Source: Calditrichia bacterium (GTDB lineage: Bacteria > Calditrichota > Calditrichia > RBG-13-44-9 > J075). From it: 64,000 nt of DNA. Positions within the stretch are counted from its first letter, which is position 1; every line of letters begins with the position of its first letter. The DNA lies in assembly GCA_028284445.1 (NCBI GenBank), contig JANQRS010000068.1, positions 205,300 through 269,299 on the forward strand. Direction: 5' to 3'. Made by a program: the position numbers and the translations under genes. Shown here in pieces: positions 16,710-60,152 of the stretch. Under the pieces are notes generated by a model. That model saw only the letters and a program-made list of their open reading frames with translations, had not been told where the DNA came from and did not search any database.

Positions 16710-17159
16710 ATGGCGAACTTAATCTTCCTCGCCAATCTGGCCACAACCCTGATGATGACCGGCTTGATTTGGTTTATTCAAATTGTGCACTATCCGCTCT
16801 TCGCCAGGGTGGGAGAACCGGACTTTGCACTCTATGCCAGGGCGCATAGTCATATGACGACCTGGGTAGTTTTTCCACTGATGACCGTCGAACTGGTCAC
16901 GACAGTGATGTTGTTGATTCAGCGGCCGACTGTAATCAGCGCACAAATGGCCTGGATTGGATTGATTCTGGTCGTGATTATTTGGGGGGCGACGGGCCTT
17001 CTTTCGGTGCCACAACATAACATACTTGCCAATGGATTCGATGCCGGCGCTCAGCAAAAATTGGTGGCAACCAATTGGGTGCGGACAGTTGCCTGGAGCT
17101 TGCGCAGTGGTCTCGTCTTGTGGTGGACGGCCAAAATCATTGAATCATTGAAGCATTGA
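16710..17159 (+). CDS. Small 4-TM membrane protein (DUF1772-like)
   Basis: 149-aa hydrophobic ORF. Its stop codon lies inside a CATTGAAG octamer tandem repeat. Confidence 0.45.
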   Translation: MANLIFLANLATTLMMTGLIWFIQIVHYPLFARVGEPDFALYARAHSHMTTWVVFPLMTVELVTTVMLLIQRPTVISAQMAWIGLILVVIIWGATGLLSVPQHNILANGFDAGAQQKLVATNWVRTVAWSLRSGLVLWWTAKIIESLKH

Positions 17160-17172
17160 AGCATTGAAAAAA
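17138..17172 (+). repeat. Octamer tandem repeat (CATTGAAK)x4 overlapping the stop codon of the 16710 gene
   Basis: CATTGAATCATTGAAGCATTGAAGCATTGAAAAAAC. The last codons ...AAG CAT TGA of the gene are formed by repeat units. Confidence 0.6.
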
Positions 17173-17198
17173 CGGTCGGCCGTGGGCGGTTGGCCGTC

Positions 17199-17255
17199 AA
17201 CGGCGTAGACGTTACAGATTTCAGCCCCGGGTTTGTTTTCTACCCGGGGGAATTG
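17199..17255. repeat. Second structured repeat family, copy 1 (ACGGCGTAGMCGTTACAGATT..AGCCCCGGGTTTSTTTTCTACCCGGGG)
   Basis: About 90% identical over roughly 55 bp to the copy at 54079-54137. Hairpin CCCCGGGT...ACCCGGGG nested in GTAGA...TCTAC. Confidence 0.55.
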
Positions 17256-17304
17256 GTCGGTGGCAGGCGGTTGGCAGTCTGTGTCGATTGGCCAGAATTA
17301 TGCG

Positions 17305-17355
17305 CACAATCCCCCTGCGTTCCCCTTCGAAGGGGGATTCAGGGGGATGTGCTGA
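17305..17355. repeat. GC-rich nested-palindrome element, copy 1
   Basis: CACAATCCCCCTGCGTTCCCCTTCGAAGGGGGATTCAGGGGGATGTG. The inner perfect palindrome is CCCCTTCGAAGGGG. Lies between convergent genes. Confidence 0.6.
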
Positions 17356-17422
17356 AGAACGGCCCTGCGCGGCAGAGCCGCGCATGAGAAACCGGTCAAC
17401 GAGTCAACGATTAACTTAGCCC

Positions 17423-18553
17423 CTAAGCCTGCTTTTTCTTCTTCGTTTTGGCAGCCGGCTGTGCAGCCTTATTCATAATACGTTCCTGGATGCGAATGGA
17501 ATTGGCGTGGACCATCTGATAAAAGTCTTTTACAAATTGCTCATCGAGACCCAGGTTTGTGGCGCGACGAATGCGGTCTTCGAAGAGATGATCCCAGCGC
17601 TTTACCTGGTAAATTGTCATGTTCTTTTCTTGCTTATAATGACCGATTTGAGCAGAGATTTCATTCCGCTGCGCTAACAGCTGAATCAGACCATTGTCGA
17701 TGCCGTCGATCTCGGAGCGATATACTTCCAATAAGCTGGTTTCCGGTACGTCACCTGGCTGGCGAAAGGTCAGTGCTGCCAGGATGTCGTTGAGCATGTC
17801 CGGTGTGATTTGCTGCTTGGCATCGCTGAGAGCATTGTCCGGATCAGGATGGGTTTCGATCATGAGCCCATTCATTGCAAGATCGAGTGCTCGTTGAGCA
17901 ACCGTGCCGATAAGGTGGCGATTACCGCAAATGTGGCTGGGGTCGCAAACGATGGGCAGGTTAGGTACAACACGCTTTAATTCGATGGCAATATTCCATT
18001 TGGGGATGTTGCGAAAAGGCGTTTTTTCGAAGGTGCTGAAGCCGCGGTGGATCGCACCGATTCGCTTAATGCCGGCTTTGTTGAGCCGCTCCATCGCCCC
18101 TAGCCAGAGCTGTAGATCGGGATTTACCGGATTTTTTACCCAAACCGGGACGTCTACACCCTTCAGGGCATCAGCTACTTCCTGCACAGAAAAGGGACTT
18201 ACTGTTGAACGGGCACCTACCCATAGTTCATCGATGCCGTGCTTTAATGCTTCATACACGTGATTGGCGTTGGCGACTTCAACAATGGTCTTCAGGCCGG
18301 TCTCTTCTTTTACGGTTTTCATCCACGCCAAGGCTTCTGCCCCAATACCTTCAAAATTGCCGGGACGAGTACGCGGCTTCCAGATGCCGGCGCGAAACAG
18401 GCTGACGCGTTCATTCTCCTTCAACGCACGGGCCGTTTCAACGACCTGCTCTTCACTCTCCGCACTACAGGGCCCGGCCATGATGACCGGTGTTTCCAGA
18501 CGTGACATCCACGCCGGATTCGTCGACAAATCCAGCTCGAAACTCTTACTCAT
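17423..18553 (-). CDS. aroG: Bifunctional 3-deoxy-7-phosphoheptulonate (DAHP) synthase, KDO8PS-like type I-beta, with C-terminal chorismate mutase domain
   Basis: DAHPS/KDO8PS TIM-barrel motifs (VIMAGPCSAESEEQ, KPRTRPG, IVCDPSH) are followed by an AroQ-type chorismate mutase domain (LEVYRSEIDGIDNGLIQLLAQRNEISAQIG). Confidence 0.85.
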   Translation of the reverse strand: MSKSFELDLSTNPAWMSRLETPVIMAGPCSAESEEQVVETARALKENERVSLFRAGIWKPRTRPGNFEGIGAEALAWMKTVKEETGLKTIVEVANANHVYEALKHGIDELWVGARSTVSPFSVQEVADALKGVDVPVWVKNPVNPDLQLWLGAMERLNKAGIKRIGAIHRGFSTFEKTPFRNIPKWNIAIELKRVVPNLPIVCDPSHICGNRHLIGTVAQRALDLAMNGLMIETHPDPDNALSDAKQQITPDMLNDILAALTFRQPGDVPETSLLEVYRSEIDGIDNGLIQLLAQRNEISAQIGHYKQEKNMTIYQVKRWDHLFEDRIRRATNLGLDEQFVKDFYQMVHANSIRIQERIMNKAAQPAAKTKKKKQA

Positions 18554-18557
18554 GACA

Positions 18558-20550: not shown

Positions 20551-20611
20551 TACTTCTCGACTTTCCCCGTGGTACGGATTTGTGAACGATCCCTGCTTGC
20601 TTTTAGCGCAA

Positions 20612-20965: not shown

Positions 20966-21003
20966 GGCTGAATGATCACTTCTGCGATCTCAGAATTGCT
21001 CTC

Positions 21004-21402: not shown

Positions 21403-22566
21403 TTAGTTTACAGGGAGGCCTGCAAACTTCGCAATGATATTGCGCAAAGTCTCGCTGGTGCCCGCCCAAATGGTGCTGGTGATGCTGTCTCTAAGATCTT
21501 GCTGGTAGGGCCAGTCAAGGAGAATACCACGCACACCAAAAATTTGTACGGCGTCCATCTGAGATTGTATATAGTTTTCCGAAACGAAAAGCTTCGTCAT
21601 GGCAGCTTCCTGCTGGAAGGGCTGGATCGATTGTCCGTCTTCCAGACGTGCAGCCATATCGTAGATGACCTGACGGGCAACGCGGTGTCGCATAACCATG
21701 TTCGCGATCTTGGTGCTGATGGCCTGATAAGAGCCGATCGGCTTGTCGTATGTTTGACGTTCCTTGCCGCGTTCTATGCACACATCTACATTCCGCGCCA
21801 TGGGGCCAAGTGCACAAGCGATGGCAACCGCTCTTTCCCAGCCGGTTGATTCGGTGAGCACTTGCAAACCGGCGCCAACGCGGCCGATGATGTGATCACG
21901 CGGCACATAGACGTTGTCGAAAATCATCTCGCCCATGCGCACTGTACGATAGCCGGTTTTTTCAAACTCACGTCCATGAGATGCGCCTTCCCAGTCCATG
22001 TCTACCATAAAAGCAGTCAAGCCGAAAGGCGAGCGCTTCTCCGAGGTTTTCGCGAAAACCAGGGCCAGATTGGAATAAGGAGAGTTGGTCAGGAAGCATT
22101 TTTTACCGTTAATCCGGTAACCGTCCCCGTCCTGAGCGGCAACCGTATCCATGCTAAATGCGTCGCTGCCGGAAACTTCTTCAGTGAAGGCGTAAGCGCA
22201 CATCGACTTGCCGGCAATCATGTCCGGGAGGAATTTTTCCTTCAGAAAATCTGAAGCAAGAAGATTAAGTGTCATTTGAATGCCGGTATGCTGATTCAAT
22301 AATGCGAAGAAGAATCCGGTATCGTGACAACCATAGCCGAGCCCTTCATAAGCTGCAACCAGTTCTGCAACGCTGCCACCGATTCCACCATATTTCTCCG
22401 GTAAACAACGGCCAAGAACACCATGTTCGCCGACAAGGCGCCAACGTTCCGGTGAAAAATCACCTGTTCTATCCCGTTCTGCCGGATCACCTTCCAGCTT
22501 CTCTTTTGCAAACTCGATATGTTGATTGCGAATCTCTTCCAGATGAGGTACTTGCCAGGGTTGCAT
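21403..22566 (-). CDS. Acyl-CoA dehydrogenase family protein (paralogue 1)
   Basis: ACAD fold throughout, including the C-terminal helical domain with the IFGVRG..L motif. The ATG start at 22566 is preferred because the GTG at 22620 lies inside a palindromic repeat element. Confidence 0.85.
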   Translation of the reverse strand: MQPWQVPHLEEIRNQHIEFAKEKLEGDPAERDRTGDFSPERWRLVGEHGVLGRCLPEKYGGIGGSVAELVAAYEGLGYGCHDTGFFFALLNQHTGIQMTLNLLASDFLKEKFLPDMIAGKSMCAYAFTEEVSGSDAFSMDTVAAQDGDGYRINGKKCFLTNSPYSNLALVFAKTSEKRSPFGLTAFMVDMDWEGASHGREFEKTGYRTVRMGEMIFDNVYVPRDHIIGRVGAGLQVLTESTGWERAVAIACALGPMARNVDVCIERGKERQTYDKPIGSYQAISTKIANMVMRHRVARQVIYDMAARLEDGQSIQPFQQEAAMTKLFVSENYIQSQMDAVQIFGVRGILLDWPYQQDLRDSITSTIWAGTSETLRNIIAKFAGLPVN

Positions 22567-22617
22567 GCTTACTACTCCGTACTTCGTTGTTAGTTGTTTG
22601 ATGTTAGTTTCCCGTGC

Positions 22618-22664
22618 CACATCCCCCTGTGTCCCCCTTCGAAGGGGGATTCAGGGGGATGTGG
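22618..22664. repeat. GC-rich nested-palindrome element, copy 2
   Basis: CACATCCCCCTGTGTCCCCCTTCGAAGGGGGATTCAGGGGGATGTG. The outer arms CACATCCCCCTG and CAGGGGGATGTG are exact reverse complements. Confidence 0.6.
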
Positions 22665-22752: not shown

Positions 22753-22789
22753 ATGTTTCAATGTTTCGATGCTTCAATATTTCAATGTC
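22753..22789 (-). repeat. Octamer tandem repeat (CATTGAAR-like)x4 immediately 3' of the long ACAD gene
   Basis: Minus-strand sense reads GACATTGAAATATTGAAGCATCGAAACATTGAAACAT. The gene ends ...CGA CAT TGA, with the stop inside the first unit. Confidence 0.6.
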
Positions 22790-24503
22790 TTGTTATCACT
22801 TCTGCCTGTTCGATGTCCGAATAGACTTCGTTGCGGATGGCCGCTGCTCGGCCGTGGCCGCCAGATAAGGCTGCCGAGATGTAGCGACGGGCTATCAGCT
22901 TTTTGCGATCAAGCGTTTCTGCTTCATCCAAAACCAGGTAGCCGGTATAGAGCGAGGCATACATGTCGACAAGCTCCTTCGAGGCTACTTCTCGCAAGGC
23001 CGCATCTTCATGCTCCGCAACATAGCTCAAGCTTTCCTGAAAGATTTTGCGTAAATCGCGAAGCTGTGCTGCCAGGGGCTGTAAGTCATCGCGGTATTGC
23101 TTCTTTTCATGCTCGTCGAAGAATTTGCCGAGAGCGTCGGCAAAAACGCCTTTGGAAGATCCGATGATTTGGACCTGGGACGTACCTTCATAGATCGTCG
23201 TGATGCGCACGTCGCGAATGAGGCGTTCAACAGCCATTTCTCTCATATATCCCATGCCGCCATGCACTTGCTGGGCGTCGTAGCAAATCTTGTAGGCCGC
23301 TTCCGTGACAACATATTTCACCATTGGCGAGAGCAGATCTACGATATTTGCTGCTTCATCAAAGCGTTCTTTTTCTTCGGCGAAGGGTTCACCAGCTGCG
23401 CGAAGGCGAGCCACCTGGTCTTCCAGGCGATTGCGCAAATCCAGCCACTGCGCACCGGCGTAGAGCAGGCTGCGATGAGCCTCGATGGATACCCGCATAT
23501 CGATTAACAGATTTGCCACCGACGGCATTGTGTTGATGACTTTACCAAACTGTTTACGCTGAGCGGCATAATCCACTGCTTCGGCGTAGGCTGCTTCTGC
23601 AATACCGAGGCCCTGAGAAGCGACACTAAATCGTGCATGATTCAACACGTAGAGCACGTGAAGCAGTCCCTGACGGCGACGGCCAACGAGTTTCGCTGGT
23701 GCGTCATCGAAATACAATTCGCAGGTAGGGGAGCCGTGCAAGCCCATCTTTTCTTCAATTCGAGTTACGCGGACTTTATCGCCGCCGTGGCAGGCGAAGA
23801 GGCTGAGTCCAAAAATATTGGTTGTGTTAGGCTCGGAACGAGCAAGAACCAGGAGGACATCGCCACAGCCATTGGAGATAAAATGCTTCACGCCTTTCAA
23901 AAACCAGTTGCCTTCATCATCCTGGTAGGCTTGCAGCTTTACAGCCTGCAAGTCCGATCCGGCGCTTGGCTCAGACAAGACCATTGCACCTGTGTGTTCG
24001 CCACTGGTGTATTTAGGCAGATATTCGCTGGCGACTTCCTCGCTGCCGAAGCGAGCAATTGCTTCGCCAACGTCCTGATAACCAAACATGGTCATTAAGG
24101 ATGCATCGGCGCGGGAAATCATTTCGATCATCATCATGTAGATGGTCGCCGGAAATTCGATGCCACCGTATTTGCGGGGCAGAATAACGCCCATCAGACC
24201 GGCTTCTGCCAACTGATCCAGTGCTTCACGGGTGCCTTTTGCGTATGTGACCTTGCCGTCCTTAAAATGGGCGCCTTCGGCGTCTACTTCCATTGCCAGG
24301 GGGGCGATTACGTCGCCGGCCAGTTCACCAACCAGTTCCAGGGCAGCTTCATACAGTTCTTGTGCTTCCTGGTAATTCTGCGGTGCTTCAGGAAAATGCT
24401 CCGCTTCTTTATAGTCATGCTCTAAAATACGGACAGCCTCTTCCAGATCCAGGCGGCTGAATTGGTATTTCAGATCAGAATTATCGCTGAAAAAATTTGC
24501 CAT
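22782..24503 (-). CDS. Acyl-CoA dehydrogenase family protein with about 150-aa C-terminal extension (paralogue 2)
   Basis: 573 aa. ACAD N-terminal, middle and C-terminal domains (GGMGYMRE, IYEGTSQVQ) plus an extra C-terminal helical domain. The stop codon lies within an octamer tandem repeat. Confidence 0.85.
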   Translation of the reverse strand: MANFFSDNSDLKYQFSRLDLEEAVRILEHDYKEAEHFPEAPQNYQEAQELYEAALELVGELAGDVIAPLAMEVDAEGAHFKDGKVTYAKGTREALDQLAEAGLMGVILPRKYGGIEFPATIYMMMIEMISRADASLMTMFGYQDVGEAIARFGSEEVASEYLPKYTSGEHTGAMVLSEPSAGSDLQAVKLQAYQDDEGNWFLKGVKHFISNGCGDVLLVLARSEPNTTNIFGLSLFACHGGDKVRVTRIEEKMGLHGSPTCELYFDDAPAKLVGRRRQGLLHVLYVLNHARFSVASQGLGIAEAAYAEAVDYAAQRKQFGKVINTMPSVANLLIDMRVSIEAHRSLLYAGAQWLDLRNRLEDQVARLRAAGEPFAEEKERFDEAANIVDLLSPMVKYVVTEAAYKICYDAQQVHGGMGYMREMAVERLIRDVRITTIYEGTSQVQIIGSSKGVFADALGKFFDEHEKKQYRDDLQPLAAQLRDLRKIFQESLSYVAEHEDAALREVASKELVDMYASLYTGYLVLDEAETLDRKKLIARRYISAALSGGHGRAAAIRNEVYSDIEQAEVITRH

Positions 24504-35511: not shown

Positions 35512-35635
35512 GAACAAGGCTACCTGTATATCCGTATTGGCTTTTAAACGCATCAATATAGGTTGTTGATCCACTGAAAAAAATAGGATTTGCAGAACTC
35601 TTGATTTTAACTTGACTAACACCCATCTTGCCTCC

Positions 35636-38095
35636 ATGAAACACTTCACCGCGTTGATTTGGACAGGTTGCGTCCTGTTTGCATCATATATATGCGCTCA
35701 ACCACAATTTGAGCGCGAAGTTAATCCTTTCTTCGTTGGTATTGATCCTGGCAGCGCATTAGATCAACCCTTTCTTGGTGGCCTGAACATGCCTGCGCCG
35801 CAATTTGTTGATATCGACAATGATGGCGATCTCGATCTTTTCGTTCATGAAGAATTAGATAGGGTTGTTTTTTTGCGTAATGAAGGAACCGCGAACACAC
35901 CCACATTTGTCTTGGAAGAAGATCAATTCCTTGATATTCGCGGGGCGAGCTGGTCGCGTTTTGTCGATGTGGATGGTGACGGTGATCTGGATCTATGTAT
36001 CGATTTCAGCGGTCGCGTAAACCTTTATCAAAATACCGGAAGCGCTGAAAGCGGATCATGGGAGCTACTTCTTGGAAGTTTGCAAACGCCGAATGGCGAT
36101 TTTGTTCAAACCGACGGCATTAGCACACCGGACTTTACTGATATTGATGGTGACGGCGATCCCGATTTGATGGTAGGCAAACAGAATGGGCGCATTACCT
36201 GGTATGAATATGTCAGTCTTAACAGCGATCAAAAACCGGTTTTTCTGCTAAAAACCGACTTTTTCTCGGAAATTGAGATCATTTTGGATGGCAAGCGGGA
36301 GAAAACGAGCCGTCATGGTGCCAATGCCTTGCACTTCTTCGATCTCAATCAAGACGGTGATCTTGATTTGTTCTGGGGTGATTTCTTTCTCGGCGGCATT
36401 GCATATCTTGAAAATGTTGGGAATGCCTCGACGCCAAACTTCGATAATTCAATGCTGGTAGAGAATTTCCCGGTAGAAGATCCGGTTGTGAGTGGCGGTT
36501 ACAATGTGCCCTGGCTGGCAGACATCAACGACGATGCGCTGCCGGATCTATTTGTGGGGATATATGGCGGTAATGTCTCCTTCCTTGAAAGTATTGAAGA
36601 TAACTTCATGTTTTATCTGAATAGCGGTACGCCGGGACAGCCGCAATTTAATCAGCAAACCCGCCGCTATCTCGATGGCCTTGATTTTGGACAGCACAGC
36701 ACGCCGCTCCTGCATGATGTTGACGATGACGGTGATCTTGATCTGTTCGTGGCAGCCCAGGAAGATTTATCCGCGCCCGATGCCGGTAACAGCCGCATTC
36801 ATTTTTATCGTAATACCGGTAGCATTACGGAACCGTCGTTGTCGCTTGAGGACGATCATCTACTGGGACGTGATGTACAATTTGAGAACAACCTGACACC
36901 GGCGCTCGCCGACCTTGATGGGGATAATGATCCCGATATGATCCTCGGTAGTTGGAATGGGGCAATGCTCTATTATCGAAACATCGGTACTTTGGCCAAT
37001 CCGCAATTTGTTGAAGCGGATGCTGGTTTTCTTGACGTGGTTATTGGTAGTCACATTGCTCCCGTGCTTCACGACGTCGATAATGACGGTGATGTGGATC
37101 TTTTTTGCGGGACGATCGGCGGCAATGTGCATTTTTATGAAAACACCGGCTCAGGAAGCGCACCACTGTTCCAGTTGGTGACCCAATCTTTTGCCAACAT
37201 TCTAGTTGGGTCTTACAGTAAACCGGCATTTGTTGATATTAATGGCGACGGCGATAAGGATCTTCTGGTCGGCAGCCTGCTGCAGGGCACCCAGCTTTAT
37301 CGGAATATCGGCGGCCCGTTGGAATTTGTGCACGATCCGGCTTTTGAATTGCCAATGTTTCGGCGCATGGCGCCCGCTGCAGGGGATCTTGACGGTGACG
37401 GTGATCCTGACCTCTTAACTGGGCTAAGCGCTGGCGGACTGGCTTATTTTCGGAATGTGAGCGAACAGGGCAGTCGCGGCTTTGATATCGAGCCGCTGGC
37501 TTTCGATTACGGCGTTGTCGAGGTTGGCCGCGAAGTGCTTTTTTCTTTTCAGATCATTAATCCGAATACTCAAATACTGACATTTGATGATATTTCGATC
37601 AGTGGCACAGATGCTGGCCGTTTTTCCGTTGCCGATAATGCGATCAATGATTTACAGCTAGGCCCTGGGGAAAAAGGGGATTTAGAGATCGCTTTCAGAC
37701 CGCAGGAAGACCTGGCTTATTCGGCAGAATTAGTTCTCGAGGTTGGTCAAGACCGATTGGCGATTCCCATAGCCGGTAAAGGCACGGTGCTGCGAGAGTC
37801 GGTAGCGGTGTTGCCCAATTTCCCCAATCCGCTTGCTGCCTCAACAACCCTGGTTTACAGCCTGAAAATTAGCGATGCCGAGCGTAATGATGCTCATGAA
37901 GTGTTTATTTTTAATACGTTGGGTCAGAAGATACGCTACTGGCGCATTTCGAATAGTAGTGCTGGTGCACGAAACACCTTAAGTTGGGATGCGCGTAACG
38001 AGGCCGGTATCCCGGTGGCCAGCGGCATCTATTTTTGCGTCCTTAAAACCAGCCGCGGGGAAATTGCGTCGCGAAAACTGGTAGTGCTGCGATAG
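35636..38095 (+). CDS. FG-GAP/VCBS-repeat beta-propeller protein with T9SS C-terminal sorting domain
   Basis: Signal peptide; more than ten DxDxDGDxDL Ca-binding FG-GAP-like repeats; C-terminal roughly 80-aa T9SS sorting domain (PNFPNPLAASTTLVYSL...GIYFCVLKTSRGEIASRKLVVLR). Confidence 0.75.
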   Translation: MKHFTALIWTGCVLFASYICAQPQFEREVNPFFVGIDPGSALDQPFLGGLNMPAPQFVDIDNDGDLDLFVHEELDRVVFLRNEGTANTPTFVLEEDQFLDIRGASWSRFVDVDGDGDLDLCIDFSGRVNLYQNTGSAESGSWELLLGSLQTPNGDFVQTDGISTPDFTDIDGDGDPDLMVGKQNGRITWYEYVSLNSDQKPVFLLKTDFFSEIEIILDGKREKTSRHGANALHFFDLNQDGDLDLFWGDFFLGGIAYLENVGNASTPNFDNSMLVENFPVEDPVVSGGYNVPWLADINDDALPDLFVGIYGGNVSFLESIEDNFMFYLNSGTPGQPQFNQQTRRYLDGLDFGQHSTPLLHDVDDDGDLDLFVAAQEDLSAPDAGNSRIHFYRNTGSITEPSLSLEDDHLLGRDVQFENNLTPALADLDGDNDPDMILGSWNGAMLYYRNIGTLANPQFVEADAGFLDVVIGSHIAPVLHDVDNDGDVDLFCGTIGGNVHFYENTGSGSAPLFQLVTQSFANILVGSYSKPAFVDINGDGDKDLLVGSLLQGTQLYRNIGGPLEFVHDPAFELPMFRRMAPAAGDLDGDGDPDLLTGLSAGGLAYFRNVSEQGSRGFDIEPLAFDYGVVEVGREVLFSFQIINPNTQILTFDDISISGTDAGRFSVADNAINDLQLGPGEKGDLEIAFRPQEDLAYSAELVLEVGQDRLAIPIAGKGTVLRESVAVLPNFPNPLAASTTLVYSLKISDAERNDAHEVFIFNTLGQKIRYWRISNSSAGARNTLSWDARNEAGIPVASGIYFCVLKTSRGEIASRKLVVLR

Positions 38096-50836: not shown

Positions 50837-50990
50837 AAACCTTTCGACACGGATTTCCACGGATGAACACCGATTCCGACAGATGATAGATAAGAAAAAA
50901 AGCTCTAAATGCTTGACAGGATCAACATGATTGACATGATAAGGATTCCCAAGCTTAACTACATCCTGTTGATCATGTAAATCCTGTCAA
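50837..50990. repeat. Composite repeat copy A: 4x heptamer array (CACGGAT/CACCGAT/GACAGAT, 10-bp period) + 25-bp palindrome
   Basis: Heptamer array ACACGGATTTCCACGGATGAACACCGATTCCGACAGATGATAG at about 50845-50890. Palindrome arms GACAGGATCAACATGATTG and ATCCTGTTGATCATGTAAATCCTGTC. About 78% identical to copy B. Confidence 0.6.
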
Positions 50991-52940: not shown

Positions 52941-52945
52941 GGATT

Positions 52946-53100
52946 AAAACCCTTCGACACAGATGCACACGGATTTTCACAGATTTACACAGATGATAGG
53001 CAAGAAGGAAGAAAAAGAATTTCGACAGGATCAACAGGATTGTCATGATAAAGACCTCCGATCAGAATTTTATCCTGTTGATCCTGTAAATCCTGTCAAT
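52946..53100. repeat. Composite repeat copy B, same orientation as A
   Basis: Heptamer array ACACAGATGCACACGGATTTTCACAGATTTACACAGATGATAG at about 52957-52997. Palindrome arms GACAGGATCAACAGGATTG and ATCCTGTTGATCCTGTAAATCCTGTC. Confidence 0.6.
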
Positions 53101-53214: not shown

Positions 53215-53487
53215 TTGGACACTATGAAGACCTACACCCCTATTGATTGTAACTACTACGACCGTCTTGAGGCTTTGGCAACAATGGCCAGGGTTGCCCG
53301 CATTGAATATCGAACCGACAGCGACGATACCGAAACGGTTGATGACATTATTGTTAACGTTTTCTCACGGAATGGCGCAGAATATATCTCCCTGAAAAGC
53401 GGCCTGGAAATTCGACTGGATTACCTCATTGCCGTTGATGGCCACATCAATCCGGCGGATCCATCCTGTCAGGTGCCAAAGCGATGA
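53215..53487 (+). CDS. rof: Rof-like protein (Rho-binding antiterminator family)
   Basis: TYTPIDCNYYDRLEALA...EYI...EIRLDYLI is collinear with E. coli Rof (TYQPINCDDYDNLELAC...EYL...ELRLDKI). Overlaps the next gene by 4 nt. Confidence 0.55.
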   Translation: MDTMKTYTPIDCNYYDRLEALATMARVARIEYRTDSDDTETVDDIIVNVFSRNGAEYISLKSGLEIRLDYLIAVDGHINPADPSCQVPKR

Positions 53488-54041
53488 TTCGATCATTGCG
53501 ACGCCGTGTTATACGCAAGATGCTGGGAACTTATAAACGGCGCATACAAGAAAATGTGCAACTGGATGTCGCCCACTGCCTAATGGCTGCGGCTAATATT
53601 GTTGACAAAAATCAATATGGTTTTTTGACGACCTACGGCAAAGAACCATGGCCCAACACTCGCCTTGTTCAACCAATTATTGACGAACAATTCACCTTTT
53701 GGATCGGCACCAATCCCGACCTTCGCAAGGTTGCTGAAGTCAAAGAAAATCCCCATGTCACCTTTGCTTTCCAGGACAATAAGCGCCAGGCAAATTTGAT
53801 CCTGCAAGGAAAGGCGACGATCGTTGACGATCTTGAGCTGCGCCGTAAATACTGGAAGGGAGAATGGCAGCTGTTTTTCCCCGGTGGCTCGCAATCAGAT
53901 GAATACATCCTGATTCGGATCGATGTAGAAAAAATGGAGCTGATGAGCTTCGAAGACAATGTTGTGCCGGAACCCTTTGGCCTTAAGCCGGTGAAGCTCA
54001 TAAAGCAAAATGGTGAATGGCAAACGACGAATGTCGAATGA
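53484..54041 (+). CDS. Pyridoxamine 5'-phosphate oxidase-like FMN-binding protein (general stress protein 26 type)
   Basis: Split-barrel PNPOx-like pattern (FLTTYGKEPWPNTRLVQP...FWIGTNPDLRKV...NPHVTFAF). Its 3' end is duplicated 115 bp downstream. Confidence 0.7.
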   Translation: MIRSLRRRVIRKMLGTYKRRIQENVQLDVAHCLMAAANIVDKNQYGFLTTYGKEPWPNTRLVQPIIDEQFTFWIGTNPDLRKVAEVKENPHVTFAFQDNKRQANLILQGKATIVDDLELRRKYWKGEWQLFFPGGSQSDEYILIRIDVEKMELMSFEDNVVPEPFGLKPVKLIKQNGEWQTTNVE

Positions 54042-54078
54042 AGATTGCAGAGTGAAGAATGACTTTTTCATCTCACCT

Positions 54079-54137
54079 ATTGAATACGGCGTAGCCGTTA
54101 CAGATTCTAGCCCCGGGTTTCTTTTCTACCCGGGGAG
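54079..54137. repeat. Second structured repeat family, copy 2, flanked by a 35-bp direct duplication
   Basis: The same element. The sequence GCAAACGACGAATGTCGAATGAARAWTGCAGAG occurs on both sides, at about 54018-54052 and about 54133-54167. Confidence 0.55.
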
Positions 54138-54160
54138 GAATTGCAAACGACGAATGTCGA

Positions 54161-54913
54161 ATGAAAAATGCAGAGGAATATCCATTGTCAATCCTGGTCG
54201 TAGGCGCTAGTGGAGCCACAGGGCGTTTACTCGTAAAGCGATTGGTTGATCGCGGAAAGAGCGTCAAGATTATTGTCCGTTCTGCGGATGCCTTACCTGA
54301 ACTTCTGCGCAGCAACAAGAATATTTCCATTATTCAGGCCAGCCTGTTAAGTTTAAGCGATACGGAATTGCAAAATCATGTCAGCGGATGTGAAGCCGTG
54401 GCTTCATGCCTGGGCCACAATCTCACATTTAAGGGTGTTTTTGGTGCGCCGCGAATGCTTGTCACCGAAGCAACGCGGCGGCTTTGCCTCGCTATCAAGT
54501 CGCACTCACCAATGCAGCCGGTGAAGTTTGTTTTGATGAATACAACCGGTAATAGAAATCGCGATCTGGCGGAAAAGGTTTCATTTGCGCAGCGGCTGGT
54601 TGTGGGGCTCATTCGTATATTGCTGCCACCACACCGTGATAATGAGAACGCGGCAGATTACCTGCGAGTAGAAATTGGTCAAAACGATAATGCTATCGAG
54701 TGGGCTGTCGTCCGACCGGATGGTTTGATTGACGAGGAATTGGTAACAGACTACGATATCCATCCATCGCCTATTCGGAGCGCAATTTTTGATGCCGGAA
54801 AAACAAGCCGCATCAACGTTGGTGATTTCATGGCTGAACTCATAACAAATAGAGATACCTGGAATACATGGAAAGGCCGGATGCCGGTGATTTATAATAG
54901 GGTTCAACCTTAG
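54161..54913 (+). CDS. NAD(P)H-binding NmrA/atypical-SDR family oxidoreductase
   Basis: N-terminal Rossmann motif ILVVGASGATGRLLVKRL; 250 aa. Confidence 0.8.
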   Translation: MKNAEEYPLSILVVGASGATGRLLVKRLVDRGKSVKIIVRSADALPELLRSNKNISIIQASLLSLSDTELQNHVSGCEAVASCLGHNLTFKGVFGAPRMLVTEATRRLCLAIKSHSPMQPVKFVLMNTTGNRNRDLAEKVSFAQRLVVGLIRILLPPHRDNENAADYLRVEIGQNDNAIEWAVVRPDGLIDEELVTDYDIHPSPIRSAIFDAGKTSRINVGDFMAELITNRDTWNTWKGRMPVIYNRVQP

Positions 54914-54919
54914 GACGTC

Positions 54920-56539: not shown

Positions 56540-56659
56540 CAGCTTTGCCCGAGAACTTCCAGTAAAAGGAAAGCCTCTCTGGACAACGCCGCCGATTAGA
56601 ATAGCTTAAAGGAGTGGTTTATGCTCTCGCGAGACATGCCAATCCCAAGGAGGATACCA

Positions 56660-58222
56660 ATGAATGCTCGCAAATTCGGATTTGCTCATTGTTTCGGAAT
56701 GCCCTTTTGGTATATGGCAATGGTCATTGCTTTGCTGTCGCTTCCGGGATGTTCTTCTCAAAAAGAAGCAGAGCTGATCAAACATCCCAATGTGCTTTTC
56801 ATTTCTATCGATGACCTGAATGATTGGGTAGAGCCACTGGCCGGAAATAGTCAGGCCCTTACACCCTCGCTGGATCGTTTCTCCAAAATGAGTGTCAATT
56901 TTACCCGAAATTACGCACCCAGTCCCGGTTGCAATCCCTCTCGCTCTGCCATGTTGACCGGCCTGCATACCTATAGCTCCGGCATGTATTCCAATTACCA
57001 GGACTGGCGGAACGTCCCGAAACTACAGGAAGTGCAAACGATTGGTCAGCACTTCCGTAATAACGGCTATTACACTGCCGGGGCCGGTAAGATCTTTCAT
57101 TACAGCCAGGTTGATACCCTTGGCTGGGATGACTATTATCCCAGCATCAAGAACCCCATGCCGCAGGAGCATTTTCCTGAAAAGCGACCCGCCAATATGC
57201 CGCCGTTCAAATACATGTATAATATGTTTGACTGGGGGCCACTAACTATTTCAGATGAAGAAACTGCTGACTTTGAGTCGGTCAATTACATCTCCCGGCA
57301 GCTCGAAAAAGCACATGACAAACCCTTCTTTCTGGCAGCAGGTATCTACCGCCCGCACCTGCCGTGGCATGCACCTCAGAAATACTTCGATAAATTTCCA
57401 TTGGAATCCATAAAAAAGCCTAAGCTGTTAGAAAATGACATTTCGGACCTCGGCCCGGTCGCTAAAGAGATTATCACGCGCGGCGGCAATTACCACAAAC
57501 ATGTTGTGGAAGCCGGACAATGGAAAAAAGCGATCCAGGGCTATTTGGCCTCCATTGCCTATGCCGATGCGATGGTCGGCAGATTATTGCAAGCGCTGGA
57601 AGCGAGTCCGCATGCCGACAATACCATTGTTGTGATTTGGTCAGACCACGGTTGGCAGCTTGGCGAAAAAGAACATTGGCGGAAATTTGCGCTTTGGGAA
57701 AATGTGCTCCGCACTGTTATGATGATCAAGGTGCCCGAGGGGCTGGAAAAAATGCCGCAAGGCTCAGCAAACGGCATCCCCACCAGTAATCTGACGTCGT
57801 TGCTGGATATCTACCCAACGCTGGTAGATCTCTGTAACCTCCCGGGAAGAAGCGATTTCGATGGCGTCAGTTTGCGCTCAATGCTGACGAATCCCCAGGA
57901 AAATGTCGCCAGACCGATTATCAGCACTTATGACTATGGCAGCTTCTCCATCCGTTATGAAAACTGGCACTACATCAAATATATCGACGATTCAGAGGAA
58001 CTATATAACCTGGAAGATGATCCTGAAGAATGGCATAATCTGGCTATGAATGAAGGCTTGGCAGATATAAAAAATCAGCTGGCTGGATTCATTCCGGAAA
58101 ATCCAATCGATCTACCCGAGGTCTCTTTAATTGAACTGATGGAGCATCACGTGCCGCCGTTCCGATCAAAGGAGTATTTTTTCAGCCAGGAAAGACAGGA
58201 TTGGATGAAGCGGTTTGAGTGA
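56660..58222 (+). CDS. Sulfatase (formylglycine-dependent arylsulfatase family)
   Basis: AAGGAGG lies upstream of the ATG at 56660. Lipoprotein-type signal (LSLPGC). Sulfatase signature SPGCNPSRSAMLTG (C-x-P-x-R). C-terminal GHW motifs (WSDHGWQ). Confidence 0.85.
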   Translation: MNARKFGFAHCFGMPFWYMAMVIALLSLPGCSSQKEAELIKHPNVLFISIDDLNDWVEPLAGNSQALTPSLDRFSKMSVNFTRNYAPSPGCNPSRSAMLTGLHTYSSGMYSNYQDWRNVPKLQEVQTIGQHFRNNGYYTAGAGKIFHYSQVDTLGWDDYYPSIKNPMPQEHFPEKRPANMPPFKYMYNMFDWGPLTISDEETADFESVNYISRQLEKAHDKPFFLAAGIYRPHLPWHAPQKYFDKFPLESIKKPKLLENDISDLGPVAKEIITRGGNYHKHVVEAGQWKKAIQGYLASIAYADAMVGRLLQALEASPHADNTIVVIWSDHGWQLGEKEHWRKFALWENVLRTVMMIKVPEGLEKMPQGSANGIPTSNLTSLLDIYPTLVDLCNLPGRSDFDGVSLRSMLTNPQENVARPIISTYDYGSFSIRYENWHYIKYIDDSEELYNLEDDPEEWHNLAMNEGLADIKNQLAGFIPENPIDLPEVSLIELMEHHVPPFRSKEYFFSQERQDWMKRFE

Positions 58223-58310
58223 CAAATGTCTAATGACAAGTGACGAATGGAAAACGAAGCAGTGAAGAAATGCCAAAATTGCCTTGCTCAATAGAAATAG
58301 GAATAAGGAC

Positions 58311-58829
58311 ATGAGTCACAAGCAATACTTTTTATTAGTTAGCTTTTTTCTATGCTTCTCGATAGCTGCCTACGCCCAAGACTCGACACTGATAGATTTT
58401 AGCCTTAAGGACCAATTCGATCAGGAATATAGCCATGAAAGCTGGCCGGGCCGGGTTCTCATTTTTATCGGCAGCGATAAAGATGGGAGTGAATTCAATG
58501 GGGTCTGGGGAAAAGCAATAACCGACTCTTTGATTGGTCATCCAAATTTCGGCAATATCCAGATGGTCGGACTATCGGATCTGAGAGGTGTTCCGTTTTT
58601 TATAAAAGGATATGTCAGAGGGAGGTTTCCAAAGGACAAGAATCAATGGGTGTTAATGGACTGGAAGGGCGTGTTCCCGAAGGCATATCAATTCAAGGAA
58701 GGAATGAGCAATATTCTCATCTTTGATTCACAAAGAAAACTAGCCTATCAAACAGCCGTAAGAACCATGGACAATTTAGAATTGATGCAAATAGTGAAGG
58801 CGACTAAGAACACCATAAAGAATGAATAA
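58311..58829 (+). CDS. Secreted thioredoxin-fold-like protein lacking catalytic cysteines, function unknown
   Basis: Signal peptide, then DFSLKDQFDQEYSHESWPGRVLIF reminiscent of AhpC/TlpA-type folds but without a CxxC. Confidence 0.45.
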   Translation: MSHKQYFLLVSFFLCFSIAAYAQDSTLIDFSLKDQFDQEYSHESWPGRVLIFIGSDKDGSEFNGVWGKAITDSLIGHPNFGNIQMVGLSDLRGVPFFIKGYVRGRFPKDKNQWVLMDWKGVFPKAYQFKEGMSNILIFDSQRKLAYQTAVRTMDNLELMQIVKATKNTIKNE

Positions 58830-58843
58830 AAGAGGGAATCCAA

Positions 58844-59092
58844 GTGGTGAAAGAATATTTTCTATTTAGAAAGTTTATTACGCCGATTGCCTTACAGTTC
58901 TTATTCTGGGGCGGTATTGGCGGAGTGCTATACGGCACTTGGTGGCTCTATGTTCATAACAATTGGGCATGGATTATGGCACTCGTATTTGGCACGTTGA
59001 TGACAAGACTCATTTTCGAAAATTTTATTCTTCGATACCAAACGTATTTGTTGTTAAAAGAAGTAAGGGATAATCTAATCAAAGAAAAGTAG
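58844..59092 (+). CDS. Small membrane protein (DUF4282-like)
   Basis: FRKFITPIALQFLFWGG N-terminal motif and two TM helices. Confidence 0.5.
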   Translation: MVKEYFLFRKFITPIALQFLFWGGIGGVLYGTWWLYVHNNWAWIMALVFGTLMTRLIFENFILRYQTYLLLKEVRDNLIKEK

Positions 59093-59192
59093 CAGTAGGA
59101 TCAAGCTGATAAATATAACCAGAAACGGCTGATTATTAACTGATCCATTGAGCAAATGTTATTTGCTCAATTTCAAGAAAGGACAAAAACAC

Positions 59193-59924
59193 ATGAAATG
59201 CTGGTTCTATTGCTTTTTGCTGATTCTTCTCAGCTCACTCTCCCTGCCTGCCCAGTCCAATGAAGGAACGACAGAGAAAGTGCGACTGCTCATTGTCATG
59301 GGCGGCGGCACCTACGAAAGCTCTGTTTTTCGTTTCTTCGATACCCTCGACGGGGTTAGCTACACGCTTGTTATGTCCGACACTGTTGCATTCAAAGAAG
59401 ACTTTCGCGATCAATACGATGCTGTGCTCATGTATAACCTCAGTTCCTCGCTCGCAGAACCAGCTCGTTCCAACTTGGTGCGTTTCATCGAGAGCGGCAA
59501 AGGGCTCGTGGTATGGCACCATGCACTGGCCAACTATGGCGATTGGCCATGGTGGTATCAGGAAGTTGTTGGAGGACGCTATCTTCTAAGAGGAGAAGGC
59601 GAACTTCCTGCTTCGACCTATCGCCAGGACGAATCCATGATAGCCAGACCCGAGAAAGCACATCCGGTAGTGTCGAGCCTGGGTGGCCATCCGATGCATT
59701 TATACGATGAGACATATAAAGGACTGTGGATCTCTCCGGATGTTGAAGTGCTGCTTAGTACCGGGCTTTCGACTAGTGATGGTCCTCTGGTTTGGGTAGG
59801 GCCTTATCAGTCAGCCCGCGTGGTTGTTGTTCAACCGGGTCATGGCAGCAGCGCGTATTTTAACCTGGGATTTCGGTATATCCTCAGGGATGCCGTTCGT
59901 TGGGTTGCTGGGAGTCTGGAGTGA
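59193..59924 (+). CDS. ThuA-like (class I glutamine amidotransferase-like) secreted protein
   Basis: AAAGGA lies upstream of the ATG at 59193. Signal peptide. ThuA-type core (LLIVMGGGTYES...VVWHHALANYGDWPWWYQEVVGGRY). Confidence 0.7.
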   Translation: MKCWFYCFLLILLSSLSLPAQSNEGTTEKVRLLIVMGGGTYESSVFRFFDTLDGVSYTLVMSDTVAFKEDFRDQYDAVLMYNLSSSLAEPARSNLVRFIESGKGLVVWHHALANYGDWPWWYQEVVGGRYLLRGEGELPASTYRQDESMIARPEKAHPVVSSLGGHPMHLYDETYKGLWISPDVEVLLSTGLSTSDGPLVWVGPYQSARVVVVQPGHGSSAYFNLGFRYILRDAVRWVAGSLE

Positions 59925-60104
59925 GTTGCAGCGCGCCAGCTGCCCAAAACTTCAGTAGATGGCTCCGCCGATCGTCTAGACATTTGTTACATTTCAATAC
60001 TCCAGTGCCCGAACCCCTTCCCCAAGTTCGTCAGGGACAATTTTGTATTGCTTTATCATTCCAAAAAAATTGTTATGACTAAACCGGCATGATACGGCAA
60101 ATTG

Positions 60105-60152
60105 CTTCAACGCTTCAACGCTTCAACGCTTCAACGCTTCAACGCTTCAACG
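60105..60152 (-). repeat. Octamer tandem repeat (CGTTGAAG)x6 spanning the stop codon of the oxidoreductase-ferredoxin fusion gene
   Basis: Six perfect CTTCAACG units on the plus strand. The gene ends ...GCG TTG AAG CGT TGA, using two units, with four more units in the 3' UTR. Confidence 0.65.

Follow-up and report, generated by a model that had tools for sequence, protein, structure and literature searches.

The closest described counterparts of the repeats analysed here are the TAACTGA heptamers, which occur as direct repeats in marine Beggiatoaceae, Cyanobacteria and some Bacteroidetes, carry a stop codon in every frame and may extend into the last 18 nt, at most, of a coding sequence (MacGregor 2015, PMC4679880). 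Contigs break in these repeats, and close strains differ in their copy number by whole units (PMC4679880). According to the summary given in the same paper, Mrazek et al. (2007) found long simple-sequence repeats (LSSR) with units of 5-11 bp in prokaryotes to be longer than chance, mainly non-coding and phylogenetically patchy, and attributed them to polymerase slippage, with units that are not multiples of 3 excluded from coding sequence (PMC4679880). In that summary LSSR are a descriptive class in which heptamers dominate, whereas the unit studied here is an octamer. Fingerprinting with STRR, a further class of heptamer repeats, is mentioned in PMC5088731.

The window, that is the whole stretch of 64,000 nucleotides that was analysed, contains three tandem arrays of the 8-bp unit YRTTGAAR, in the forms CATTGAAG/CGTTGAAG, with 4, 4 and 6 units. 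Each contains the TGA with which a bona fide gene ends and lies in sense orientation relative to that gene. A preliminary description had placed these arrays, with the last codons and stops of the upstream genes in them, at essentially the positions found here:

17138..17169, plus strand: octamer array 1, CATTGAAT-CATTGAAG-CATTGAAG-CATTGAAA, 4 units (TRF period 8, 3.9 copies, 95% matches)
16710..17159, plus strand: gene for a conserved membrane protein (145-149 aa, no Pfam family), with its TGA (17157-17159) in unit 3 of array 1
22756..22787, minus strand: octamer array 2, degenerate, CATTGAAA-TATTGAAG-CATCGAAA-CATTGAAA (TRF 4.6 copies, 79% matches)
22782..24503, minus strand: acyl-CoA dehydrogenase family gene (573 aa), with its TGA (22784-22782) in unit 1 of array 2
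60105..60152, minus strand: octamer array 3, six perfect CGTTGAAG units (TRF 6.2 copies, 100% matches, score 100; repeat family D2)
60139..62436, minus strand: gene for an FAD-dependent oxidoreductase / 4Fe-4S membrane protein (765 aa), with its TGA (60141-60139) in unit 2 of array 3

Array 1 codes for the last six residues and the stop of its gene, giving the C-terminus ...I-E-S-L-K-H-stop. In array 2, where a partial unit CATTT follows unit 4 and reaches 22751, unit 1 is the source of the H codon and the TGA; the gene had been described as ending in R-H-stop, which is right for the amino acids, but the codons are AGA CAT TGA and not CGA CAT TGA. Units 1-2 of array 3 code for L-K-R and the stop of a protein ending in ...A-L-K-R-stop. 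The stops are offset from the array starts by 19, 3 and 11 nt at loci 1, 2 and 3, respectively, which are three different phases, and the array is thus not built from or for the stop. The arrays cannot be due to chance: with one mismatch allowed, a two-unit pattern has 11 matches in the window versus 0.12 +/- 0.38 in shuffles, and a scan of the window for 7/8-nt periodicity returned 4 segments versus 0.13 expected. If arrays were placed randomly, in either orientation, in about 10 kb of non-coding sequence, the probability that all three lie on a stop codon would be about 7e-5, a rough estimate from the gene map.

All three ORFs that end in arrays are real genes with many homologues each. The locus-1 protein has 1154 homologues, which end 5-8 residues past an LVLWW motif, and the gene is therefore of native length plus about 3 residues. 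The homologues of the locus-2 protein are 571-575 aa long and end within +/-3 residues, so that the acyl-CoA dehydrogenase gene is not truncated. At locus 3, homology stops at about residue 747 (CPMDVLSF), and the homologues likewise have variable tails of 10-20 residues. Judged against their homologues, the three proteins are full length, and none is truncated. This bears on the possibility that the arrays are assembly or sequencing artefacts, as might be suspected because short-read contigs break in or near arrays and several loci have arrays at contig ends. Such an origin has almost no chance of being correct: the ORFs reach normal length only with the array-borne stops, and arrays are also present in an independent Logan assembly of the sample, whose contigs are identical to the window or broken in the repeat, at the orthologous site in a long-read contig of a relative (L167, see below), and in complete genomes, such as Sorangium.

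The octamer contains TGA, and 8 mod 3 = 2, so any three units stop all three frames; its reverse complement has no stop codons. The tails that an array can encode are H/R-stop, LK(H/R)-stop or (I/V)E(A/S/T)LK(H/R)-stop, at most 7 codons. Like TAACTGA, the octamer has a length that is not a multiple of 3 and places stops in every forward frame, the reverse complement being open in either case, and both are unstructured, mixed with other 7-mer arrays and dispersed over unrelated intergenic sites and distant phyla. They differ in unit length, heptamer versus octamer, and in sequence. In the Beggiatoaceae genome, most TAACTGA repeats closely precede a start codon and are in forward orientation, whereas all three window arrays lie on stops; where the octamer precedes start codons in other phyla, it does so as its reverse complement. 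The taxa differ as well, since the window comes from an FCB-group lineage and the octamer occurs elsewhere in Verrucomicrobiota, Chloroflexia and Acidobacteriota.

The STRR heptamers of heterocystous cyanobacteria, reportedly described by Mazel et al. in 1990, are likewise a single short unit that forms tandem arrays at a great many intergenic sites of one genome; they are 7 bp long, have other sequences and are known only from cyanobacteria, and we know of no report that they overlap stop codons. REP/BIME-type extragenic palindromes are multicopy and lie just after stop codons. The octamer arrays resemble them in copy number and in their position at gene 3' ends, but are direct rather than inverted repeats, unstructured, and overlap the ORF. 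The octamer arrays probably belong with the long simple-sequence repeats that have been described in cyanobacteria, Beggiatoaceae and Burkholderia. To our knowledge, and as far as its published summary goes, the LSSR survey describes neither a sense-specific association with stop codons nor the recurrence of one octamer.

Arrays of the YRTTGAAR unit were found at more than 116 loci of other phyla, where they reach 13-16 units, and single MAGs carry the same unit at at least 10 loci. We scored an array as "at stop" if the stop lay inside it or at most 15 nt before its start; in most cases with a stop 1-15 nt before the array, the stop falls within a degenerate leading unit. By this definition 25 of the 129 arrays are at the stop of a long ORF and in sense orientation, compared with one in antisense (Fisher p = 1e-6), and the proposed bias towards gene 3' ends therefore holds in other genomes. 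Elsewhere, 16 arrays contain the stop of an ORF with 150 codons or more, and 6, 4 and 6 of them fall into the three phases. Nine of ten tested array-terminated ORFs from other phyla are complete genes with Pfam domains extending to the C-terminus, among them aroA, dapA, a UXS-like epimerase and a histidine kinase. The remaining arrays, about 80%, are intergenic, reversed before start codons, or in frame inside genes. No shared flanks among array loci and no excess of singleton units as seeds were detected. Genomes with this unit are also rich in other 7-8-bp arrays, about 1 per 6 kb of fetched sequence, and on viral contigs the target unit was counted 12 times versus 27 and 6 for control octamers. 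The octamer is not uniquely frequent.

A syntenic relative, L167, whose locus-1 protein is 84% identical, keeps an array at the gene end in its long-read contig. This array has 5 units versus 4 in the window; four of them are TATTGAAG/A, with the units after the first starting with T and not C, and a 1-nt indel at the junction has moved the stop from unit 3 to unit 2. The rest of the locus-1 spacer cannot be aligned, and the downstream modules differ. The change in copy number, the altered units past the first and the junction indel bear out the suggestion of a hypermutable microsatellite, and the comparison shows, for one orthologue pair, frame buffering and what appears to be slippage turnover. 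Two metagenome scans yielded no population data on copy number. The preliminary description had also assumed that the C-terminus is insulated from slippage past the first unit, which is only partly true, as the tails read AKIIESLKH-stop in the window and AITLKY-stop in L167. At locus 3, orthologues at 83% and 81% identity have no array, and one at 79% identity ends in a different array, the stop-bearing heptamer (AAGATTA)5.3. Relatives of the locus-2 gene also have no array.

Simple-sequence contingency loci of host-adapted pathogens lie in the 5' coding region or promoter and switch genes on and off. They resemble the octamer arrays in being prone to slippage, in having a unit that is not a multiple of 3, and in adjoining or overlapping coding sequence. 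One might speculate that the window arrays act in the same way, with copy number toggling a gene or altering its product, and the perfect six-unit array 3, its unit length and the different tails of the locus-1 orthologues would be in line with this. However, the octamer arrays lie past the functional protein and cannot shift its frame: gain or loss of units takes place downstream of the stop-bearing units or is equivalent to them, so that variation is limited to a tail of no more than 7 residues. The genes have housekeeping or metabolic roles and do not code for surface or restriction functions, and none of the window arrays is in a promoter or 5' coding region. Phase variation is largely refuted by this geometry, and we consider it highly improbable.

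The window holds further short-period stretches and, near two of the octamer arrays, additional modules:

58220..58249, plus strand: weak heptamer array TGACAAA-TGTCTAA-TGACAAG-TGACGAA (TRF period 7, 4.3 copies, 69% matches, score 32; near noise level)
54015..54066, plus strand: weak, degenerate 7-nt periodic stretch (GAATGNN), family D4, below TRF reporting at score 30
44..75, minus strand: heptamer array CAAATTC/CAAATCC, 4.6 units, score 43, without stop codons
17200..17249, plus strand: D7 module (ACGGCGTAGACGTTACAGATTTCAGCCCCGGGTTTGTTTTCTACCCGGGG), a GC hairpin that follows array 1 after 30 nt
17309-17351, 22621-22663 and 62555-62597: three copies of a GC-rich palindrome

The first three bases of the array at 58220..58249 are the TGA stop of a sulfatase gene (56621-58222); this might be the same phenomenon with another unit, but it is weak and close to noise. 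The GAATGNN stretch holds the TGA (54039-54041) of a PNPOx-like gene (53484-54041), and a 92% identical copy of it lies at 54138-54175, on the far side of a D7 hairpin element. The array at 44..75 begins 8 nt past the TGA of dnaJ (84-1277). Further D7 copies are found at 54086-54135 (plus strand) and, in part, at 22709-22684 (minus strand), and each copy follows, at a distance of 19-46 nt, a short-period stretch with a stop codon in it. D7 has no T-tract and no Rfam match; it is an associated neighbour and not part of the octamer repeat.

The GC-rich palindrome, which is of the REP/BIME kind, lies about 90-140 nt from the arrays at loci 1 and 2, in agreement with the earlier observation that two of the three loci have it nearby. 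One could imagine that array, D7 hairpin and palindrome are parts or remnants of a small composite mobile element, similar to REP/BIME or MITE, with gene 3' ends as its insertion sites. At both locus 1 and locus 2, D7 lies 30-46 nt and the palindrome 90-140 nt downstream, the D7 copy at 54086-54135 sits between the stop-holding heptamer stretch and its repeat, and the 29-nt module 22746-22718, which follows array 2, is present again behind the arrays of L167. Of 12 arrays in a Roseiflexaceae MAG, at least 7 lead directly into a CCGGGTRCCCTYTGGG hairpin, often succeeded by further arrays or units. Nevertheless, locus 3 has neither a hairpin nor a palindrome nearby downstream, the palindrome at 62555-62597 occurs without an array, the spacers between modules vary in length and sequence, and array phase is arbitrary relative to the ORF. 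The footprint of such an element, as first suggested, is not supported: the array loci show no shared flanks, terminal inverted repeats, target-site duplications or conserved array-side junction. As L167 has the array with different downstream modules, array and modules move independently. We regard a composite element as improbable.

A role as a functional 3'-UTR element is rather unlikely, although it has more in its favour. The arrays could offer a single-stranded platform in 8-nt register, with (CAUUGAAG)n as the putative bound sequence, to an RNA-binding protein or RNase (S1, Csp, RNase E/G-like), or could act as a fail-safe termination buffer, stopping ribosomes that have read through or shifted frame as soon as they leave the ORF. 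This would agree with the strong, strand-specific association with stop codons across phyla, with the retention of the locus-1 array in L167 while the remaining spacer turned over and with the junction indel that the array buffered there. Prediction gives the arrays essentially no RNA structure, and none that is significant (z-scores -1.5 to +0.5), which is what a platform for protein binding should look like, and protein binding was proposed by MacGregor for the analogous TAACTGA repeats. In Verrucomicrobiota, reverse-complement arrays occupy the expected Shine-Dalgarno position of conserved genes and are conserved before orthologous start codons at 76-79% protein identity. On the other hand, the array is absent from the same genes in relatives or replaced by an unrelated unit, most arrays of the unit elsewhere are not at stops, array-bearing genes have no common function, no Rfam family matches the arrays, and no terminator was found at them. 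Three units would be enough for a triple-frame stop, yet arrays become several times longer, and the first units are conserved because they are now coding sequence.

With moderate confidence, we propose that each of the three loci carries a copy of one dispersed 8-bp microsatellite, (YRTTGAAR)n, which belongs to the known class of LSSR, STRR and TAACTGA-like repeats, is tolerated at ORF ends and requires no dedicated function. Replication slippage or unequal exchange would make, resize and homogenise the arrays, as the orthologue comparison supports, and a tolerance filter would set their position. As three units stop every frame, a sense array may overlap the extreme end of an ORF in any phase, at a cost of at most 7 array-encoded codons, and the native stop would become redundant and be lost or overwritten. 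An array elsewhere in a gene, or antisense at its end, would truncate or unpredictably extend the protein and presumably be purged by selection. Once an array holds the stop, its first units would be fixed as coding sequence and junction frameshifts absorbed, as in the one orthologue pair, and the RNA of the array may form an unstructured, stop-dense 3' trailer.

Some observations sit uneasily with a microsatellite. Pure local slippage should yield a different unit at each locus, and here one unit is present at three unrelated genes within 64 kb, without shared flanks or seed excess. A dispersal or selection step is missing from the slippage model. At locus 1, the array persisted while everything downstream was replaced; together with the conservation in Verrucomicrobiota, this persistence would also fit selection for function. 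All three window arrays lie on a stop, compared with 10-20% in a rough expectation from random origin plus filter and a cross-genome figure of 19%, which indicates more 3'-end bias in this lineage than the passive model predicts.

Taken together, both the class of dispersed repeats and the logic of their tolerance at ORF ends are known already from TAACTGA (PMC4679880). The stop that the octamer supplies to the three genes is a by-product of the repeat, which involves no special property and no new mechanism.

Three arrays of an 8-nt unit with the consensus YRTTGAAR are present as had been described, each holding the last codons and the stop codon of the gene that enters it, as seen in the sequence and in the ORFs.

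Octamer arrays at the ends of three unrelated genes in the window
17138-17169, plus strand: array 1, units CATTGAAT CATTGAAG CATTGAAG CATTGAAA
22787-22756, minus strand: array 2, units CATTGAAA TATTGAAG CATCGAAA CATTGAAA, followed by a partial unit
60152-60105, minus strand: array 3, six copies of CGTTGAAG, all perfect

TRF reported a period of 8 at all three loci, with 3.9, 4.6 and 6.2 copies at loci 1, 2 and 3, respectively. With up to one mismatch allowed, a pattern of two units matched 11 times in the window compared with 0.12 matches expected from dinucleotide-preserving shuffles, and an independent scan for periodicities of 7 or 8 nt returned four segments versus 0.13 expected. Each array has the same orientation as a long ORF and contains the TGA of that ORF, which lies in unit 3 at locus 1 (tail IESLKH-stop), in unit 1 at locus 2 (tail RH-stop) and in unit 2 at locus 3 (tail ALKR-stop). 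None of the three arrays reaches further into its gene than the last 1-7 codons, and they encode 6, 1 and 3 residues before the stop, respectively. The R-H-stop ending previously given for locus 2 is correct at the residue level, but the codons are AGA CAT TGA, with AGA rather than CGA.

The three ORFs that end in an array are genuine genes. Locus 1 codes for a conserved membrane protein of 149 aa with more than 1,000 homologues, locus 2 for an acyl-CoA dehydrogenase (ACAD) of 573 aa and locus 3 for an FAD/4Fe-4S membrane oxidoreductase of 765 aa. The host is an uncultured bacterium with a G+C content of about 48%, and the best protein matches of the window are only 65-84% identical and derive, where named, from Cytophagales, Calditrichota and KSB1. 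Truncation of the genes by the arrays can be rejected, as the C-termini agree with those of homologues at all three loci. ACAD homologues measure 571-575 aa, and their C-terminus lies within three residues of that of the window protein, the locus 1 protein extends 10 residues past an LVLWW motif compared to 5-8 residues in its homologues, and the homology of the oxidoreductase stops at CPMDVLSF, followed by a variable tail of 10-20 residues in all relatives. The matching lengths and ends indicate that the arrays start where each gene naturally ends.

The frame properties of the unit can be read straight from the sequence. The octamer holds a TGA and 8 mod 3 equals 2, so that the TGA occupies frames 0, 2 and 1 in successive units and every reading frame entering a sense array is terminated within 22 nt. 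No frame of the reverse complement, (CTTCAAYG)n, contains a stop. A stop codon built from the repeat is therefore an automatic consequence of the unit. That the repeat supplies the stop, as proposed in the preliminary description, is observed at the three loci, but it does not point to a special property of the arrays. Measured from the beginning of the array, the stops lie at 19, 3 and 11 nt at loci 1, 2 and 3 and thus use three different phases, so that the arrays were not built around a pre-existing stop. With the three phases used about equally in the window and in other genomes, we rejected the stop codon as the seed of the arrays.

A scan for (CRTTGAAR)3 in one genome per species yielded at least 116 loci. 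Among the matches listed, these are concentrated in Verrucomicrobiota/Chthoniobacterales, Roseiflexaceae/Chloroflexia, Saprospiraceae (Bacteroidota), Acidobacteriota and Fibrobacterota, and two metagenome-assembled genomes (MAGs) carry at least eight octamer loci each. We determined the position of stop codons for 129 arrays outside the window, among the matches listed, using ORFs of at least 150 codons. The stop was inside the array in 16 sense cases (phases 6/4/6) and in no antisense case, and the array began 1-15 nt past the stop in nine sense cases and one antisense case, the stop then lying mostly within a degenerate leading unit. The difference between sense and antisense arrays at stops is significant for these 129 arrays (Fisher p = 1e-6), and in at most four additional antisense arrays, an ORF continues through the array and terminates within 30 codons. 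The bias towards gene 3' ends is therefore real (25 sense versus 1 antisense outside the window, among the matches listed), and the pattern in the window is one instance of a general, orientation-specific rule. Pfam domains reach the C-terminus in 9 of the 10 array-terminated ORFs tested, for example in an EPSP synthase (2-415 of 417), a DHDPS (5-288 of 289) and an amine oxidase (2-441 of 443). Sense arrays are never found inside ORFs in the other genomes, which is forced by their own stops, and in-frame antisense arrays consist of three units (24 nt) or of four units plus one flanking base (33 nt). Only about one fifth (19%) of the arrays across genomes, among the matches listed, are located on stops.

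Other 7-8-bp arrays are abundant around the listed loci: in 836 kb, we counted approximately 75 arrays of heptamers and 70 of other octamers. The units of neighbouring arrays are often related (CGTTAAAG, CGTGAAAG, CGTTGGAG, GCGCAGAG), and such arrays enclose short GC hairpins in a nested fashion or precede an inverted array. In the Roseiflexaceae MAG JANLSE (loci L023, L040, L064, L069, L085, L108 and L112; L numbers denote loci retrieved from other genomes), the hairpin CCGGGTRCCCTYTGGG directly follows CATTGAAG arrays, sometimes in two copies, and is usually followed by more CATTGAAG or by other arrays or array units. At L108, GCGCAGAG arrays enclose this arrangement, giving the order B-A-hairpin-hairpin-A-B. 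Such nesting suggests that arrays already in place received further insertions, or expanded internally, one after another. At L006, L031, L077 and L096, the reverse complement of a forward array (CTTCAACG/CTTTAACG units) lies 15-35 nt past that array, and the pair would form a long perfect hairpin directly past a stop or before a start. In viral contigs, the octamer was found at 12 loci compared with 27 for a reversed-unit control and six for a shuffled control. Control octamers are thus about as frequent, the idea that the octamer itself is special is unsupported, and its occurrence across phyla alone is no evidence for it.

The preliminary description had also considered a microsatellite, and the comparison with relatives bears this out. 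A syntenic locus 1 orthologue, L167, is found on a long-read ENA contig (ERZ25074695), with the same four upstream genes and a protein that is 84% identical. It also ends in an array, with five units compared to four in the window, that is, a whole-unit difference, and the four units after the first start with T (TATTGAAG/A). Owing to a 1-nt indel at the junction, the stop lies in unit 2 rather than in unit 3 and the tail reads AITLKY-stop in place of AKIIESLKH-stop, and the remaining spacer cannot be aligned with the window. These changes are probably the signature of slippage and concerted homogenisation, and the pair shows how the array absorbs a frameshift at its junction. Past the octamer array, L167 carries, at 3281-3414, (AGCAGT)5.8 and (AAAACGA)6.6, both perfect, and then a 29-nt module (TTCACCCTAAGAAACCGCAGCGCGGTTGA), which is also found downstream of array 2 in the window (22746-22718). 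Locus 3 orthologues with 83% and 81% identity use ordinary TAG/TAA stops and lack the array. An orthologue with 79% identity ends in (AAGATTA)5.3, the source of its TAA (L170 7839-7875/L171 2640-2676), indicating that different stop-bearing units can occupy one gene end. For the ACAD gene of locus 2, no arrays were detected within 21 kb in the closest relatives (68% and 65% identity). The orthologue comparison for loci 1-3 therefore shows that arrays come and go over the time that separates genera. Relatives were encountered in the ENA samples ERZ25074695, ERZ25072490 and ERZ23486818 and in GCA_964471235. The exact window proteins were found in one Logan sample, the contigs of which are identical to the window or broken at the repeat, and metagenome scans anchored on the locus 3 flank and on D7, a GC hairpin module, gave no matches. 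At L170 5155-5189, a TCAGTRA array begins 5 nt past the tandem TGA-TAA stops of another gene.

Taken together, a passive account of the placement of the arrays has the best support. Slippage, as inferred with support from the orthologue comparison, would create and resize arrays of short units, and purifying selection would clear them wherever a gene is damaged. A forward array of this octamer is the sole configuration that can overlap the end of an ORF in any phase at negligible cost, so that arrays would accumulate there, and the native stop would then decay or be overwritten. By our own rough target-size estimate, assuming a dispensable C-terminus of about 30 nt in one orientation versus a spacer of 100-150 nt in two orientations, 10-15% of arrays are expected on stops, compared to the 19% found across the genomes listed. 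The window itself, with three out of three arrays on stops, lies above this prediction, which keeps a function or a mode of dispersal in consideration. In the same direction points the recurrence of one octamer at unrelated genes of a single genome without shared flanks or target duplications; single units that could have served as seeds are also not notably in excess (ten singletons versus 5.9 expected).

Two further array settings would favour a functional or dispersal model. Arrays of (CTTCAAYG)n are located 3-27 nt before start codons without a Shine-Dalgarno sequence in Verrucomicrobiota, at genes including ruvA, mdh and proC, and the set (L010/L037, L017/L077, L021, L034, L069, L078, L107 and L007) also includes one Roseiflexaceae and one Fibrobacterota locus. 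Verrucomicrobiota orthologues with 76-79% protein identity retain this placement, with 13 versus 3 units. Within 60 nt before a start, 25 reverse-complement and 13 forward arrays were counted among the matches listed (p = 0.05); ORF-based gene calls give shadow ORFs in high-GC loci, and these counts as well as those of arrays in opposite-strand ORFs are therefore approximate. Secondly, (CTTCAACG)3-4 is found in frame in one loop of a multi-pass membrane protein family in three phyla (L015, L038, L045, L073 and L100; Aquilonibacter, Verrucomicrobiota and three Sulfotelmatobacter), where it encodes LQRFNASTLQR, a peptide with an N-x-S/T sequon, after a conserved LLLLDYWPL motif. The proteins are only 37-48% identical, and the exact DNA repeats in paralogues as diverged as these suggest that insertion or expansion has recurred at a single site. 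Nevertheless, we regard the functional and dispersal models, even combined, as rather unlikely. A specific version, in which YRTTGAAR arrays mark ORF boundaries across phyla as a cis-acting RNA module, appears improbable to us. It predicts that (CRUUGAAR)n directly past a stop acts as a stop-dense, unstructured trailer and that its complement, (CUUCAAYG)n, directly before starts without a Shine-Dalgarno sequence acts as a leader, which would be read by a putative S1-/Csp-like single-strand RNA-binding factor with an 8-nt register or by pairing of leader and trailer arrays. The recurrence of a single unit, its retention at orthologous sites and the in-frame 24-nt copies in one membrane-protein family would all be explained if the arrays were selected for this function and not merely tolerated.

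Two of the three array loci, 1 and 2, lie near a GC-rich palindrome, as noted in the preliminary description, and several further repeats are present in the window.

Neighbouring modules and weak short-period repeats in the window
17309-17351, 22621-22663 and 62555-62597: palindrome, 43 nt, GC-rich, perfect, ATCCCCCTG..TCCCCTTCGAAGGGGGA..CAGGGGGATGTG
17200-17249, 54086-54135 and 22709-22684 (partial): D7, 50 nt, ACGGCGTAG.CGTTACAGATT..AGCCCCGGGTTT.TTTTCTACCCGGGG
58220-58249: TGACAAA heptamer array, weak, first bases are the TGA of a sulfatase gene
54015-54066: GAATGNN stretch, weak, contains the TGA of a PNPOx-like gene (54039-54041)
44-75: CAAATTC heptamer array, weak, begins 8 nt past the dnaJ stop
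22586-22609: AACAACT heptamer array, weak, just upstream of an ATG at 22564

The palindrome looks like a REP-type element, with three copies of 81-100% identity, every one of them intergenic. Searching the whole window against Rfam 15 gave no match at gathering thresholds, and the sole match in E-value mode was a spurious miRNA-like one on the palindrome, far below threshold. D7 has a GC stem of 7-8 bp and a loop of 11 nt without a T-tract, and a short-period stretch with a stop codon is found 19-46 nt upstream of each copy. A 38-nt direct repeat (92% identity) borders D7 on either side at 54015-54175, and similar GGTCGG...GCGGTTGGC stretches do so at 17170-17290. D7 and the palindrome are found downstream of the array at both loci 1 and 2 and neither is present at locus 3; the spacers between D7, palindrome and array differ between loci, the palindrome at 62555-62597 stands alone, and the array of L167 is accompanied by other modules. 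These points argue for arrays and modules as independent occupants of 3' spacers. A single mobile unit (MITE/REP-like) made of array and modules is not supported, the arrays lacking shared flanks or inverted ends, and neither is the earlier suggestion of a mobile-element footprint. The four weak heptamer arrays or stretches at gene boundaries are all near the noise level of TRF. A 76-nt element with an internal inverted repeat (GACAGGATCAACAGGAT ... ATCCTGTTGATCCTGT) is present in two copies 2.1 kb apart in long spacers (50915-50990 and 53024-53099), each preceded by a set of 10-20-nt ACACAGATTT-type tandem repeats (50847-50886 and 52957-52994). Within an 827-aa ORF (35612-38095), a 47-nt coding repeat (..GATATCGACAATGATGGCGATCTCGATCT..) occurs seven times at 35798-37269, which we take to be a DxDxDG calcium-binding/FG-GAP-like protein repeat.

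The arrays belong, as a new member, to the known class of dispersed short tandem repeats (LSSR, STRR, TAACTGA-like). Like LSSRs or microsatellites, they consist of head-to-tail units in the range of 1-11 bp beyond chance, change by whole units between related genomes (4 versus 5; 13 versus 3) and, with a unit length that is not a multiple of three, are kept out of the coding body. YRTTGAAR is an analogue rather than a member of the TAACTGA-type repeats, the unit of which is TAACTGA (MacGregor, 2015). The two share stops in three forward frames, an open reverse complement and many unrelated loci in distant phyla, with three octamer loci in the 64 kb of the window. Forward TAACTGA-type repeats are found immediately upstream of starts, whereas all three window arrays are at stops. 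MacGregor's study makes the same argument of tolerance at ORF ends for the TAACTGA repeats (PMC4679880). Cyanobacterial STRR1-3 are heptamers of heterocystous cyanobacteria, whereas the repeat described here is an octamer in a host that belongs, by its best protein matches, to the FCB group. A contingency locus for phase variation was rejected, as the stop lies in units 1-3 and any change is limited to a tail of at most 7 residues. No terminator-like site is present at any of the three loci, which argues against an intrinsic terminator, and a structured RNA was dismissed, since the arrays alone fold no better than shuffles (z -1.5 to +0.5) and have no Rfam match. Chi-, DUS/USS- and parS-like motifs were discarded based on the mixed orientation of the arrays despite a uniform GC skew, their tandem rather than single occurrence and a mismatch to the consensus sequences of those motifs. 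Exact double-unit strings are absent from the searchable literature, and single-unit matches there are unrelated primer-like sequences.

For genome annotation, our results mean that some genes take their last 1-7 codons and their stop from a repeat and that these parts are unstable in evolution, that short-read assemblies break at such arrays and that slightly different C-termini will be called in close strains without a biological switch. The arrays provide a clean example of how the coding properties of a microsatellite, with stops in the forward and none in the reverse direction, decide where it survives, and an array can capture the stop codon of a gene and thereafter buffer junction frameshifts. 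How one octamer came to be present at many gene boundaries, unrelated to one another, in several phyla is a residual puzzle worth pursuing; if a binding factor or a dispersal mechanism is behind its spread, this would bear on the 35-year-old question of the role of cyanobacterial STRR-type repeats.
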